This document shows positions 4,372 through 7,953 of a stretch of 64,000 bases of DNA, piece by piece. Source of the stretch: Escherichia coli O157:H7 (GTDB lineage Bacteria; Pseudomonadota; Gammaproteobacteria; Enterobacterales; Enterobacteriaceae); NCBI RefSeq assembly GCF_013167455.1, contig NZ_CP038328.1; one strand, given 5' to 3'. The translations under genes were made by a program, and so were the position numbers. The notes under the pieces were generated by a model, which saw nothing but the letters and a program-made list of their open reading frames with translations, had not been told where the DNA came from and did no database searches. How positions within the stretch are numbered: position 1 is the stretch's first letter; the number at the start of each line of letters is the position of its first letter.

Positions 4372-5343
4372 TTACGGCTTGCGCGCAATCAGCACCGCGC
4401 GTTTAGGCGCAGGATAACCTTCAACTGTCTTACTCGGATCATGTGGGTCGAGGAAATCGGACAGAGACTCGGTAACCATCCATTCAGTGCGTCGCTGCTC
4501 TTCTGTAGTGGTAACGCTCACATCCGCAATGCGGATATCTACAAAACCACACTTCTTCAGCCAGTTTTTCAGCGCCAGCGCGGAAGGGATGAAATAGACA
4601 TTACGCATTTGCGCGTAACGATCGCCCGGCACCAGCACCGTGTTCTCATCGCCATCAATAACCAGCGTTTCAAGCACCAGTTCACCTTCATTGACCAGTT
4701 GATCTTTCAACTGCCAGAGATGCTCCAGCGGTGAACGACGATGATAAAGCACGCCCATCGAAAAGACGGTATCAAAGGCTTTCAGTGCCGGAAGTTGTTC
4801 AATACCTAACGGTAACAAATGCGCGCGCTGATCATTACCCAGTAGTTTACGCACCGCTTCAAACTGGCACAGAAACAGTTGCGTAGGGTCGATCCCCACC
4901 GCGAGGTGCGCGCCTGCGCCAATCATGCGCCACATGTGATAACCGCTGCCGCAGCCGACATCCAGAATGGTGCGTCCGGTTAAATCAGAAAGATGGGGCA
5001 GAACACGATCCCATTTCCAGTCGGAACGCCATTCGGTATCGATGTTGACGCCATACAGTGAGAACGGCCCTTTGCGCCACGGCATCAGGTTGCGCATCAG
5101 CGTTTCAATGCGTTTAATTTGCCCTGCGCTCAGTGGCTCTTCGCTTTCTGCCGTAACGCTATGCAATAAATCAAGACGATACGGTTTAATTTCAGGTAGA
5201 AACTCCACCGCATTTGACCACTGCTTAAACAACCCGTGCTGCTGCTCGCGCTGCCAGTTAGCAATCTGCGCGGGCAGCGTTTCGAGCCAGTGTGAAAGAT
5301 GATTTTTGGCAATCAGAGAATAAAAGTTACCAAAGTCGATCAT
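4372..5343 (-). CDS. cmoB: tRNA U34 carboxymethyltransferase CmoB
   Basis: 323-aa ORF with class I methyltransferase motif DVGCGSGY; 4-nt overlap with cmoA. Confidence 0.9.
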
Positions 5344-6083
5344 GCAGCGTCCTCTGCTTTTAATGCCACCAGTGAACCAAAGTTAAAGCACTGGAACCAC
5401 AGCTCGCTATGCTCAAAACCGGCTTTATGCAGGCGTGCTTTATGGGTTTCCACGGAATCGGTCAGCATCACGTTTTCCAGCATGCTGCGCTTCTGGCTGA
5501 TCTCCAGTTCGCTGTAACCGTTGGCACGTTTAAAGTCGTGGTGCATGTTGAACAACAGTTCACCAACTTTGGCATCTTCGAAACTGAATTTTTCCGAAAG
5601 CACCAGCGCGCCGCCGGGGTTCAGCCCTTGATAAATTTTATCCAGTAACGCCTGGCGCTCGGAAGGTTCCAGGAATTGCAGGGTAAAATTCAGCACCACC
5701 ATCGATGCGTTTTCAATGGCGATATCGCGAATATCACCTTCAATGACGTCTACTGGCGTAGGGGCTTTATAGGCGTCAATATGACGACGGCAGCGTTCAA
5801 TCATCGCCGGGGAGTTGTCGATGGCAATAATTTTGCAATTATCATGATGAATGTTGCGACGCACCGAGAGCGTCGCCGCGCCCAGAGAACAACCCAGATC
5901 GTAAACCTGCGTACCAGGTTGAACGAAGCGCTCGGCTAACATACCAATCATGGAAATAATATTGGAATAGCCGGGAACGGAACGCTGGATCATATCCGGG
6001 AAGACTTCAGCTACCCGTTCATCAAAGGTCCAGTCGCCCAGTCTGGCGATAGGGGCAGAAAATAGCGTGTCGCGGTGAGACAT
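5340..6083 (-). CDS. cmoA: Carboxy-S-adenosyl-L-methionine synthase CmoA
   Basis: 247-aa ORF, SAM-dependent methyltransferase fold motif DLGCSLG. Confidence 0.9.
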
Positions 6084-6123
6084 AACGTAAAAATCCGGGA
6101 AAAAGAAAGTGGCGTATTGTGCG

Positions 6124-6519
6124 CTAACGCAGGGAGAAAACCAACTCCCAGGGCATATACCAAAGATTCGCCAGCACCATCAGCAACAGCGCACACCAGG
6201 TGGCGCTCATGCCGGAACGTCGCCAGCGGAACAGACGGTGATGAAAACCGTAATAATGCATCAGACGACCAGCAAGCAAAACGATGCCGCAAATATGCAC
6301 CATCCAGGTTTCTGCGCCATTCATTTCCATAAACAGCATCAGCACAATCGCGATGGGAATATATTCCACCGCGTTACCATGAATGCGAATAGCGCTTTGC
6401 AGTTCGCTAAAACCACCGTCACCATAGGCAACGCGGTACTGCATTCGCAGGCGAACGACATCAAAAGAGAACTTCATTAATAACAACGCACTTAAAACGG
6501 CATACAGCGCGCTTACCAT
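6124..6519 (-). CDS. yecN: Inner membrane protein YecN (MAPEG family)
   Basis: 131 aa from the internal ATG at 6519; the upstream 53 codons of the ORF-track entry are read-through. Confidence 0.8.
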
Positions 6520-6571
6520 ACAAACTCCCTTTAAAATGGCCGATGGCACCTGTCTATGATAGGTGGCAAAT

Positions 6572-7390
6572 TCAGAAAAGAGAAGATTGCTGTGGAATAG
6601 CCGGAACTGCTCCGATCTCTGGAAGCGTTTTACGTAAGTCTTCCCACAGGGTATGTACCAGTTCCGGGGCCTGGGCAATATCTGGCGTATGTAAAAAAAG
6701 ATAAGGCGTAGTGGTCTGATGCCACTGCGCTAATTTTTGTAACCAGACCTGAAATAATTCCCGGTTTTGCGTCATATCATCACTACCGATAAAACGGATC
6801 AGCGGATTTGTCGCCGTCAGTACAGCATGTACCGGAACTTTAGGTTTTTTTCGTTGAGCGTCGCGAATAGCTTCACTGTGTGGACGTGCTGCATGAACCG
6901 GGCGGCTGTCTAAAATCACCTGATTAACGCCGCGCTGATGTAAACCGCGATTAAGCGTTTGTTCCTCTTCCCCTTTGGCGAAAAACTGTGGATGGCGGAC
7001 TTCCACACCATAATTAAATTCGCCAGGGAGAGAATCGAGAAAATGCCAAAGCGCAGGCAGCTCCCGTGGGCCGAATGTGGCAGGCAGTTGCAGCCAGTAT
7101 TGCCCAATGCGCGGAGCCAACGGTGACATGCGGGTCAAAAATTCAGTCACTAAATCATCGCAATGTCGTAATGCTGCCTGATGCGAAATGGTCGCCGGAA
7201 ACTTAAAACAGAAGCGGAAGTCATCTGTGGTCTGTTCACGCCAGCGCAGGACAACCTCGGGTTTCGGCAGGGCGTAAAGCGTGGTGTTGCCCTCCACGCA
7301 GTTAAAGTGACGGGCATACTCTTCAAGGCTGGTGATCCCCAACCGCACCCATTTAGGATGCGACCATTGCGGTAGACCGATGTAAATCAT
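6572..7390 (-). CDS. yecE: DUF72 family protein YecE
   Basis: 272-aa ORF; start overlaps yecD stop by 4 nt. Confidence 0.8.
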
Positions 7391-7953
7391 AACGCGTTGA
7401 GGATCTCTTCCACGCTACGCACACGGGCGATGCGCGGGTAGATATGGTTGATACTGTTATTGTGCTGCTCGGCGCTAGCGGCACTACAGGCATCTTCGGC
7501 AATCACCAGATTAAAGCCAAGTTCCCAGGCATTGCGGGCGGTGGATTCAACTCCGATATTGGTCGAGATCCCACATAACACTATTGTATCGATACCTCGG
7601 CGGCGTAATTGCAACTCCAGATCCGTACCGTAAAACGCACCCCACTGACGTTTGATTATTTCGATATCACTGTCAGTTGCACCTAATGCAGCTGGATGTT
7701 GCCACCAGTTTTCGGGCAACACTTTAGCGGGGGAAGGGGCATCAACCGGCTGTTTTAATGCTTCGGCGTAATCGGCAGACCAGCCAACGCGCACCAGAAA
7801 CACGGGCTGACCGCTGGCGCGAAATTTCGCCGCCAGCTTCCCGGCGCGATTAACTACCTCATCGGCAGTATGTGGACCACCGGCAAAAGGTAAGATGCCT
7901 TCTTGTAAATCGATCACCACCAGCGCAGTGGTTTTAGCATTAAGTTCAAGCAT
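7387..7953 (-). CDS. yecD: Isochorismatase-family hydrolase YecD
   Basis: 188 aa from internal ATG (MLELNAK...); isochorismatase-like residues. Confidence 0.8.

Follow-up and report, generated by a model that had tools for sequence, protein, structure and literature searches.

The yecD-yecE-yecN-cmoA-cmoB array of Escherichia coli O157:H7: probably a compacted row of three older units

Gene Organization

The window analyzed here, a stretch of 64,000 nucleotides, is 100% identical to E. coli O157-type chromosomes, and the RefSeq annotation places in it five consecutive minus-strand genes which are transcribed in the order yecD, yecE, yecN, cmoA, cmoB. A preliminary description of the locus had named the right genes as a cmoB-to-yecD cluster, an order which is that of the coordinates and the reverse of transcription. 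The first gene, yecD (7387..7953), encodes a 188 aa protein of the isochorismatase family, cysteine hydrolase type; it is followed by yecE (6572..7390), which encodes a 272 aa DUF72 protein with a predicted TIM-barrel fold, yecN (6124..6519), which encodes a 131 aa membrane protein of the MAPEG family, cmoA (5340..6083), which encodes carboxy-SAM synthase, and cmoB (4372..5343), which encodes the tRNA U34 carboxymethyltransferase. The annotation and the window sequence bear out the claim of same-strand genes joined by 4-nt overlaps, with the stop codon of yecD and the start codon of yecE sharing ATGA at 7387-7390 and the stop codon of cmoA and the start codon of cmoB sharing ATGA at 5340-5343. 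The remaining spacers measure 52 nt (yecE to yecN) and 40 nt (yecN to cmoA).

The 3' untranslated region of cmoB, which is convergent with torZ, carries REP-type repeats at 4280..4370, where an Rfam search returned ES036 at 4280-4322 on the minus strand (45.5 bits, above the gathering cutoff) and naRNA4 at 4326-4370 on the plus strand (below the gathering cutoff); the same search found no RNA element within the array. Disruption of the array by an insertion sequence or prophage in O157 strains was considered and rejected, as the ISEc8 copy of three matching genomes sits in torZ, outside the array. In itself, the array consists of known genes in an ordinary arrangement.

Encoded Proteins

Searches against Pfam and NCBIfam confirmed all five of the family assignments made earlier. 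CmoA scored above the equivalog cutoffs of NF011995 (583 bits, cutoff 285) and TIGR00740 (453 bits, cutoff 193), as did CmoB for NF011650 (533 bits, cutoff 209) and TIGR00452 (492 bits, cutoff 275), with an additional CmoB match to Pfam PF08003 (Methyltransf_9, E=1e-173). CmoA converts prephenate and SAM to carboxy-SAM, and CmoB transfers the carboxymethyl group onto ho5U34, giving cmo5U34.

YecD matched PF00857 over the full profile (1-175 of 175; E=2e-40, 139 bits) as well as an NCBIfam equivalog named "hydrolase", and aligned over its full length with PDB entry 1J2R ("isochorismatase family protein yecD"; E=5e-124). The motifs VVIDLQ and LCGISTN are present in its translation. The literature searched yielded no physiological substrate for YecD. 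YecN carries a MAPEG domain (PF01124, E=1e-24, 87 bits against a cutoff of 23.4). Only one MAPEG gene is known in E. coli, and we take YecN to be the MAPEG-like protein of E. coli for which an activity has been published. That protein, when purified, had glutathione-CDNB transferase activity in vitro (Bresell 2005, as cited in PMC6798054).

YecE contains the PF01904 domain (E=5e-50, 171 bits), and the top Foldseek matches of its AlphaFold model (pLDDT 92) were the DUF72 structures 1ZTV/1VPY and 1VPQ (E=1e-12 for 1ZTV and E=1.5e-10 for 1VPQ; TM about 0.7). The domain and the modeled fold, which is that of the solved members, identify YecE as a DUF72 TIM barrel within the endonuclease IV / sugar-isomerase superfamily. 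DUF72 is listed in Pfam and NCBIfam as a family without an assigned function; its enrichment near polB2 has been reported and, together with the fold, suggests a connection with DNA damage or sugar chemistry. Enterococcus and Thermotoga are the sources of the solved DUF72 structures, and neither is known to make cmo5U. The earlier statement that yecD, yecE, and yecN have no assigned role is otherwise right, but overlooks the transferase activity reported for the E. coli MAPEG protein and the solved structure of YecD.

Transcription through the Array

Simple promoter and terminator scans gave no locus above shuffle expectation and were used only to locate motifs, which were then judged by conservation. 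The terminator scan of the window found no terminator-like site between the five genes. At the end of the array, between cmoB and torZ, lies an intrinsic terminator hairpin (4214..4235, minus strand; GCGCCCG-UUUC-CGGGCGC followed by UUUU) with a folding energy of -15.8 kcal/mol (z=-4.46) that was equalled by 0 of 200 shuffles, and a Term-seq 3' end is listed for the homologous K-12 sequence (Adams 2021). Within yecN, the scan also marked a weak hairpin with a U-run at 6407..6433 (minus strand), and K-12 has a Term-seq 3' end at yecN +113 (Adams 2021); an attenuator at this hairpin was rejected because its folding energy did not reach significance (z=-1.7). The hairpin-like sequence is also present in Yersinia.

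In the Keio yecN::kan strain, CmoA changed by -1.24 log2 and CmoB by -1.17 log2, a decrease of about 2.3-fold for both (Mateus 2021, PMC8547470). This effect is one of polarity, and Keio yec deletions are polar on cmoAB. The leader and first codons of cmoA (6050..6115, minus strand) form a C-rich, unstructured RNA, the fold of which is no more stable than those of shuffles (z=+0.58). Term-seq of K-12 places a Rho-dependent 3' end at cmoA +26, near window position 6058, with a significant Rho score of 2.55 and with upstream/downstream coverage of 217/65 without and 170/130 with bicyclomycin (Adams 2021). By this coverage, cmoAB RNA in LB amounts to ~30% of the RNA upstream. Because inhibition of Rho raises read-through into cmoA and yecN::kan lowers CmoA and CmoB, co-transcription, which the preliminary description had proposed, has partial experimental support; the absence of an intergenic terminator agrees with it, whereas the Rho-dependent loss at cmoA +26 counts against it. 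Co-transcription of all five genes in E. coli is plausible.

Gene Neighborhood across Species

The locus was compared in 80 species with ~8 kb on each side, such that the absence of a yec gene refers to the locus and not to the genome. The full array is present in 15 of 17 Enterobacteriaceae species, and 14 of these 15 share the spacing -4 / 48-73 / 38-40 / -4 nt, the exception being Siccibacter, where +11 nt replaces the yecD/yecE overlap; the short gaps are therefore no accident of a single genome. Lack of synteny outside E. coli had been named beforehand as a result that would argue against a link of the yec genes to tRNA modification. Other species do retain the synteny, but it erodes one gene at a time, and the yec genes have been lost or parted from cmoAB on many occasions. 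Only Enterobacteriaceae have the complete array in its tight form; beyond them the complete array occurs only in some sister families (gaps in Yersiniaceae, Erwiniaceae, and Pectobacteriaceae are 80-400 nt). yecD is absent from the locus in Pectobacterium, Brenneria, Hafnia, Edwardsiella, and one Pantoea; only yecN-cmoAB is left in Budvicia, Photorhabdus, Xenorhabdus, Arsenophonus, and Mangrovibacter, and only yecE-cmoAB in 10 Vibrionaceae and 4 Aeromonadaceae. Rosenbergiella, Mixta, and Orbaceae have no yec genes at the locus, and cmoAB, as is often the case, stands alone in Shewanella, Colwellia, Psychromonas, Moritella, and Pseudoalteromonas. In some lineages, genes on the opposite strand interrupt the array: yecN and cmoA are separated by an amino-acid permease gene in Hafniaceae, yecE and cmoA by a beta-lactamase gene in one Photobacterium, and yecD and yecE by a pair of AAA ATPase genes in Acerihabitans.

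The most constant neighbor of cmoAB across Enterobacterales, Vibrionales, Aeromonadales, and Alteromonadales is aspS, usually with ruvC or yebC beyond, and this constancy indicates that conservation of the array is block synteny. Conservation beyond such synteny across distant lineages, by which a single functional operon would be recognized, was not found. A complementary word-index search for CmoB homologs returned almost only close enterobacterial relatives (119 of the 120 matches listed have at least 84% identity). Four look-ups of distant CmoB representatives, mostly on short contigs, showed cmoA-cmoB-pheS, fadR-cmoB, or cmoB alone and no DUF72, MAPEG, or isochorismatase neighbor, in a sample too small to count.

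These comparisons bear on the proposal that the five genes form a true functional operon in which at least one Yec protein serves cmo5U synthesis. The substrate of YecD might be a compound derived from chorismate or prephenate, or a by-product of carboxy-SAM chemistry; that of YecE might be RNA or a pathway intermediate; and YecN might detoxify a reactive by-product. The proposal can draw on the shared strand, on the tight packing and its conserved spacing in Enterobacteriaceae, on the read-through and polar effect in the absence of intergenic terminator-like sites, on the position of yecE beside cmoA in Enterobacterales, Vibrionaceae, and Aeromonadaceae, and on the chorismate-derived chemistry that both CmoA and, going by the family name only, the isochorismatase family touch. 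It is nevertheless highly improbable given that many lineages keep cmoAB without adjacent yec genes, that the yec genes are lost singly, that opposite-strand insertions split the units, and that aspS, nudB, yebC, and ruvC are likewise conserved neighbors without a shared function. The Rho-dependent loss at cmoA +26 and the promoter-like remnants before yecN and cmoA described below weigh in the same direction.

A narrower version ties only yecE functionally to cmoAB, with yecN and yecD as later, unrelated additions. This gene is the oldest yec neighbor, lying between aspS and cmoA in 44 of the 80 loci and in three orders, and belongs to a family without an assigned function. Outside Enterobacteriaceae, however, yecE is mostly 100-330 nt away from the gene that follows it in the array, with a minimum of 52-62 nt (one Pantoea, one Vibrio), and direct yecE-cmoA gaps in Vibrionaceae and Aeromonadaceae run from 62 nt to 1.2 kb, the maximum being that with the inserted beta-lactamase; in these two families cmoA retains its own promoter-like motif. 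Moreover, cmoAB lacks an adjacent yecE in Morganellaceae, Budvicia, Orbaceae, and all sampled Alteromonadales, and also in Spirabiliibacterium, the one sampled member of Pasteurellaceae with cmoA beside cmoB, while the DUF72 fold and polB2 enrichment direct attention to other chemistry. We consequently see very little chance that this version is correct, and the odds are slimmer still for a specific role of YecE in xo5U34 tRNA modification or in the handling of a carboxy-SAM/prephenate by-product.

Promoter-like Elements

Independent promoters and terminators between the genes had likewise been named as evidence that would speak against the link; no intergenic terminator was found, and promoter-like elements conserved before yecN and cmoA appear to persist as remnants in E. 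coli. The divergent aspS/yecD intergenic region (7954..8262) contains the upstream promoter region of the array, with a conserved CTCACAAAAATTAACAAAATTTGT-type motif at 8040-8017 (minus strand) and an aspS promoter-like site at 8146-8174 (plus strand). Constitutive RpoD promoters for aspS and "yecDEN" have been assigned to this spacer (Shimada 2014, PMC3946193).

Upstream of yecN, an element of the form GCGACA-17-TATCAT is kept in most Enterobacterales loci that have yecN. In E. coli the -10-like hexamer TATCAT (6556..6561, minus strand) lies 36 nt upstream of the yecN start, with 5 of its 6 positions invariant among 16 Enterobacteriaceae, and the -35 position falls within the 3' end of yecE and has no match; the hexamer may be what is left of the element. 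The counterpart before cmoA (6116..6144, minus strand) comprises TTGGTT (6144-6139), a 17-nt spacer, CACAAT (6121-6116), and the GC-rich discriminator ACGCCAC, and overlaps the last codons and stop codon of yecN. It aligns with TGnTAGAAT/TAAAAT plus ACGCGCC upstream of cmoA in most Enterobacterales, Vibrionaceae, and several Alteromonadales, a motif which is kept regardless of which gene precedes. A profile of this motif built without Enterobacteriaceae matched unseeded loci at the expected place, and the E. coli copy, the CACAAT of which lacks the first T, fell below the profile threshold. Across Enterobacteriaceae the remnant is nonetheless a long run of almost entirely invariant bases: the best-conserved third positions of yecN are those of its last codons, and conservation of the yecN 3' end and the yecN-cmoA spacer is 0.88-0.91 as compared with 0.70 for synonymous sites.

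Judged by this conservation and by consensus, the yecN- and cmoA-proximal motifs would be active promoters. In E. coli the cmoA-proximal promoter would be weak at best, because cmoAB RNA is below upstream RNA in LB. SMRT-Cappable-seq supplements contain no entries for yecD/E/N-cmoAB, the Cappable-seq supplements (Ettwiller 2016) have no match at the expected coordinates, and the literature searched gives no promoter information under the old names yecO and yecP.

It could be argued that E. coli has one obligate operon transcribed from the yecD promoter only, and that the conserved sequences ahead of yecN and cmoA serve in translation initiation, RNA stability, or Rho loading and not as promoters. 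The weak E. coli -10-like hexamers, the -35 regions placed within coding sequence, the low cmoAB RNA that rises upon Rho inhibition, the decrease of CmoAB in the yecN deletion, and the resemblance of the C-rich, unstructured cmoA leader to a Rho loading site all fit such an arrangement. We consider it unlikely, since in other families the same motifs occupy long spacers or immediately follow a gene on the opposite strand, a setting in which cmoA needs a promoter to itself (Hafniaceae, Shewanella, Colwellia), and since the cmoA motif is a -10 plus discriminator whose profile also matches the aspS promoter.

Discussion

Beyond the demonstrated anatomy, conservation pattern, polar effect, and Rho effect, we regard it as probable that the array arose by secondary compaction of three transcription units that were originally independent, yecD-yecE, yecN, and cmoA-cmoB, next to aspS in an old and conserved block of synteny. 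In Enterobacteriaceae the spacers would have shrunk to -4/~52/~40/-4 nt, with the consequence that a transcript from the aspS-divergent yecD promoter could run through all five genes, unterminated until the hairpin after cmoB. The ATGA overlaps would permit translational coupling inside yecDE and inside cmoAB, coupling between the three units would be loose, and Rho would stop a large share of transcripts in the C-rich, unstructured start of cmoA. The older yecN and cmoA promoters would survive as remnants, the -10 and GC-rich discriminator of cmoA resembling the neighboring aspS promoter. The occurrence of yecE beside cmoA across three orders leaves room for a real link.

The cmoA-cmoB pair has been described as a two-cistron operon of gamma-proteobacteria (Kim et al., 2015, PMC4482062). 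As in that operon, the two genes are adjacent, usually with a 4-nt overlap, and have their own conserved promoter-like motif upstream of cmoA; in contrast to it, Enterobacteriaceae pack three more genes upstream without terminators, so that some transcription enters cmoAB from there. Genes, order, and strand are identical to those of two units in the literature, yecDEN (Shimada 2014) and yecN-cmoAB, in which cmoA and cmoB are positions +1 and +2 of a yecN-containing unit (Mateus 2021); the boundaries of these units differ, and neither study presents the five genes as a functional pathway. The locus also resembles conserved blocks that mix unrelated housekeeping genes, as ruvC-yebC-nudB-aspS beside cmoAB does, but differs from a plain block of this kind in that the yec genes lie on the same strand as cmoAB and are closely packed with it, so that they resemble an operon. 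A GC-rich discriminator following the -10 is characteristic of stringent-type promoters, such as those of rRNA, tRNA, and translation-factor genes. The cmoA motif (TAGAAT/TAAAAT plus ACGCGCC) and the aspS site (TATAAT plus AGCCGCC) are of this form, although the E. coli cmoA copy is degenerate.

With respect to the pathway itself, each step of cmo5U synthesis already has a named enzyme (TrhP/TrhO, CmoA, CmoB, and CmoM), with no Yec protein needed, and the main text of a genome-wide Pseudomonas tRNA-modification screen, which found aro genes and sahH for cmo5U, names no DUF72, MAPEG, or isochorismatase proteins. The source organisms of the solved DUF72 structures, which are not known to make cmo5U, likewise count against a true functional operon. 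The suggestion that co-transcription links the yec genes to cmo5U34 is accordingly weak in view of the decaying synteny, the internal promoter-like elements, and the fully enzymed pathway; the packing of the array gives little reason to tie yecD, yecE, and yecN to this modification. We infer that no functional link exists between the yec genes and cmoAB. YecD, probably an amidohydrolase of the cysteine hydrolase type, the TIM barrel YecE, and YecN, probably a MAPEG glutathione transferase, are most likely neighbors by descent that serve unrelated purposes in housekeeping or detoxification.

Were the link real, three E. coli y-genes of long standing would acquire functions and a pathway regarded as complete would be extended, and if YecE were linked to xo5U34, the widespread DUF72 family would gain its first function. 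Arguments from gene neighborhood in E. coli alone are misleading here, as the close packing probably reflects a recent compaction of separate units. Since the Keio yecN deletion lowers CmoA and CmoB by polarity, tRNA mass spectrometry in yec deletions, which had been proposed as a check, is confounded. A minor positive result is the conserved form of the putative cmoA promoter, with its GC-rich discriminator, together with the Rho-dependent stop at the start of cmoA, a hint that cmo5U synthesis may be tuned to growth and translation state.

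Organization of the yec-cmo Array

The window comes from an E. coli O157-type chromosome and is 100% identical to several complete genomes. Five consecutive minus-strand genes, transcribed from yecD toward cmoB, are flanked in it by torZ, which is convergent, and by aspS, which is divergent. Both the RefSeq annotation and the ORF list give yecD (7953..7387; Pfam Isochorismatase), yecE (7390..6572; DUF72), yecN (6519..6124; MAPEG), cmoA (6083..5340) and cmoB (5343..4372), the last two carrying Pfam methyltransferase domains and scoring well above the NCBIfam equivalog cutoffs. 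NCBIfam labels YecD merely "hydrolase" and YecE "hypothetical protein". ATGA overlaps join yecD to yecE (7387-7390) and cmoA to cmoB (5340-5343), and the remaining gaps measure 52 nt (yecE-yecN) and 40 nt (yecN-cmoA). Annotation, ORFs and sequence thus confirmed the tight same-strand packing with 4-nt overlaps; the genes, their order and the operon-like packing are already known from literature and annotation. In some cattle O157 strains an ISEc8 (IS66-family) copy splits torZ just downstream of cmoB, as in E. coli O157:H7 YB14-1 (locus L092, 335-2647), where the yec-cmo array is intact. yecE is also an Stx phage integration site. Papers dealing with Shiga-toxin phages and STEC mention the gene, and one of them concerns Stx phage transduction.

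Conservation of the Array Across Species

Diverse CmoB representatives were gathered and 35 were aligned; the alignment was used to fetch 80 loci from contigs, one genome per species, in which the E. coli proteins were placed by tblastn. The complete array was found in 15 of 17 Enterobacteriaceae species, and its spacing there hardly varies (yecD/yecE -4, Siccibacter +11; yecE-yecN 48-73; yecN-cmoA 38-40; cmoA/cmoB -4). In Yersiniaceae, Erwiniaceae and Pectobacteriaceae the genes present keep this order and the gaps widen to about 80-400 nt. The locus lacks yecD in Pectobacterium, Brenneria, Hafnia, Edwardsiella and one Pantoea, is reduced to yecN-cmoAB in Budvicia, Photorhabdus, Xenorhabdus, Arsenophonus and Mangrovibacter, and holds no yec gene in Rosenbergiella, Mixta and Orbaceae. 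In ten Vibrionaceae and four Aeromonadaceae, aspS is followed by yecE-cmoA-cmoB (yecE-cmoA gap 62 nt to 1.2 kb), and cmoAB stands without a yec gene in Shewanella, Colwellia, Psychromonas, Moritella and Pseudoalteromonas. The cmoA-cmoB pairing is itself broken in some lineages, since no cmoA lies within about 8 kb of cmoB in two Vibrio loci (L053, L064) and seven Pasteurellaceae loci (L048, L051, L058, L060, L073, L074, L076); most Pasteurellaceae loci have cmoB alone within 8 kb.

Opposite-strand genes separate the units in several lineages: Hafnia and Edwardsiella have an amino-acid permease gene between yecN and cmoA, Photobacterium piscicola has a beta-lactamase gene between yecE and cmoA, and Acerihabitans arboris (L038, 3721-5804) has, between yecD and yecE, a pair encoding a 477-aa AAA_15/AAA_21 ATPase and a 216-aa protein without a Pfam match, which looks like a defence-type module. 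Of the genes around cmoAB, aspS is the most constant, and ruvC or yebC usually lies on its far side; this neighbourhood is an ancient block of synteny whose genes are unrelated. A two-cistron cmoA-cmoB operon of gamma-proteobacteria is described by Kim et al. 2015 (PMC4482062). Synteny thus extends outside E. coli, but yec losses, wider gaps, insertions and cmoAB standing alone in other lineages count against a fixed association.

Two further observations were made in these loci. In Citrobacter youngae (L004, 5954-6769) an in-frame stop disrupts the yecE 5' end, and yecD was not detected. In Serratia and Yersinia (L016, L019, L021), the spacers between yecD and yecE share, ~130 nt upstream of yecE, a repeat-like sequence, ...GCTAGGC...GCTAACAACGC..., which may be an enterobacterial intergenic repeat.

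Promoter-Like Elements Within and Upstream of the Array

Comparison of the 100 nt upstream of cmoA across all lineages yielded a common motif, (C)TGnTAGAAT or TAAAAT followed by a GC-rich discriminator ACGCGCC and then CTTT, about 33-38 nt from the start codon (about 60 nt in Vibrio) and found regardless of which gene precedes it (yecN, yecE, a permease, a GGDEF gene or aspS). A profile seeded from non-Enterobacteriaceae only recovered unseeded loci where expected (Hafnia, E=9e-4; a Vibrio, 0.011; V. mexicanus, 0.066; Yersinia, 0.1) and gave weak matches in ten Enterobacteriaceae, 17-20 nt before cmoA. The profile also matches the aspS promoter region (8146-8174), and the motif therefore has the character of a generic promoter made of a -10 and a discriminator.

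The E. coli homologue, CACAAT plus ACGCCAC straight after the yecN stop with TTGGTT 17 nt upstream inside yecN, is degenerate and scores below the profile threshold. Positions -75 to +3 of cmoA are nearly invariant among 16 Enterobacteriaceae (majority-base fraction 0.88), and the last codons of yecN have that gene's best-conserved third positions (0.88-0.91 vs. a mean of 0.70). Upstream of yecN, GCGACA-17-TATCAT is present in Yersinia, Pectobacterium, Photorhabdus, Xenorhabdus, Brenneria, Siccibacter and others, and E. coli retains its TATCAT (6561-6556). We infer from these sequences that the cmoA and yecN elements may be active promoters in E. coli. As to independent promoters between the genes, conserved promoter-like motifs do precede yecN and cmoA, but the E. 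coli copies are degenerate or partial.

The aspS-yecD spacer holds a promoter-like site at 8146-8174 (plus strand) with TATAAT, the GC-rich discriminator AGCCGCC and a T-run. This site is built like the motif that precedes cmoA in other lineages, and it resembles stringent-type promoters. About 65-85 nt upstream of yecD, at 8017-8040 (minus strand), lies CTCA(T/C)A(C/A)AAATTAACAAAATTTGT, which contains the palindrome ACAAAATTTGT. This motif is conserved among Enterobacteriaceae, and copies can still be recognised in Yersiniaceae, Erwiniaceae and Acerihabitans; it may serve as an operator or as a -35 region.

Read-Through and Termination in E. coli

A consensus scan found no terminator-like site in the intergenic gaps of the array. 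The first strong hairpin lies 3' of cmoB (4235-4214, -15.8 kcal/mol, z=-4.5), where a Term-seq 3' end is placed in K-12 (Adams 2021), and the cmoB 3' untranslated region is filled by REP-type elements (Rfam: ES036 [CssrF], 4280-4322, minus strand, above gathering; naRNA4, 4326-4370, plus strand, below gathering). Constitutive sigma-70 promoters for aspS and "yecDEN" have been reported in the divergent spacer (Shimada 2014, PMC3946193). Additionally, cmoA and cmoB have been listed as positions +1 and +2 of the yecN-containing unit, and in the Keio yecN::kan strain CmoA and CmoB fall by 1.24 and 1.17 log2 units (Mateus 2021, PMC8547470). A 3' end at cmoA +26 nt has a significant Rho score of 2.55; coverage there drops from 217 over the 800 nt upstream to 65 downstream without bicyclomycin and from 170 to 130 with it, and a Rho termination region within cmoA is likewise given (Adams 2021). 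The leader of cmoA is rich in C and shows no more structure than shuffled sequences do, which is what a Rho loading site would predict. Together, the published data show that upstream transcripts enter cmoAB and that the majority end there; the units are joined by transcription, yet their expression is not in step. The preliminary description's proposal of co-transcription is therefore partly supported, by the lack of intergenic terminator-like sites in the scan and by yecN::kan polarity, and qualified by Rho-dependent loss at the cmoA start.

Within yecN, a hairpin with a U-run (6407-6433, minus strand) coincides with a K-12 Term-seq 3' end at yecN +113; its fold is not significant, and a similar hairpin is present in Yersinia.

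Yec Proteins and the cmo5U Pathway

The steps to cmo5U already have named enzymes: TrhP and TrhO (ho5U), CmoA (carboxy-SAM), CmoB (transfer) and CmoM (methyl ester). A genome-wide Pseudomonas screen found that aro genes and sahH affect cmo5U, and its main text makes no mention of DUF72, MAPEG or isochorismatase proteins. YecN is a MAPEG family member, and a purified E. coli MAPEG member is described, in the account of Bresell 2005 in PMC6798054, as conjugating glutathione to CDNB in vitro. YecE is confidently modelled as a TIM barrel (pLDDT 92) closest to DUF72 proteins of Enterococcus faecalis and Thermotoga maritima, and similarity to endonuclease IV and sugar epimerases is only remote; a 2025 study noted an enrichment of DUF72 genes in the vicinity of polB2 damage-response operons. 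YecD is the protein of solved structure 1J2R, with amidohydrolases as its nearest characterised relatives; the literature searched named no physiological substrate for it. Family, structure and literature data hold no pointer to a tRNA role for YecN, YecE or YecD.

The guilt-by-association link of these proteins to cmo5U34 is thus weak, given the stepwise yec losses and a pathway whose enzymes are already named; its strongest surviving form, a functional link between yecE and cmoAB, we consider very improbable. On the favoured reading, the array consists of three units, yecD-yecE, yecN and cmoA-cmoB, that were separate in ancestors and became compacted in Enterobacteriaceae. Read-through would run along the compacted array, with translational coupling inside yecDE and inside cmoAB, and with Rho uncoupling the units at the border between yecN and cmoA. 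Because yecN::kan lowers CmoA and CmoB, Keio yec deletions are polar on cmoAB, and tRNA phenotypes in such strains would mislead.
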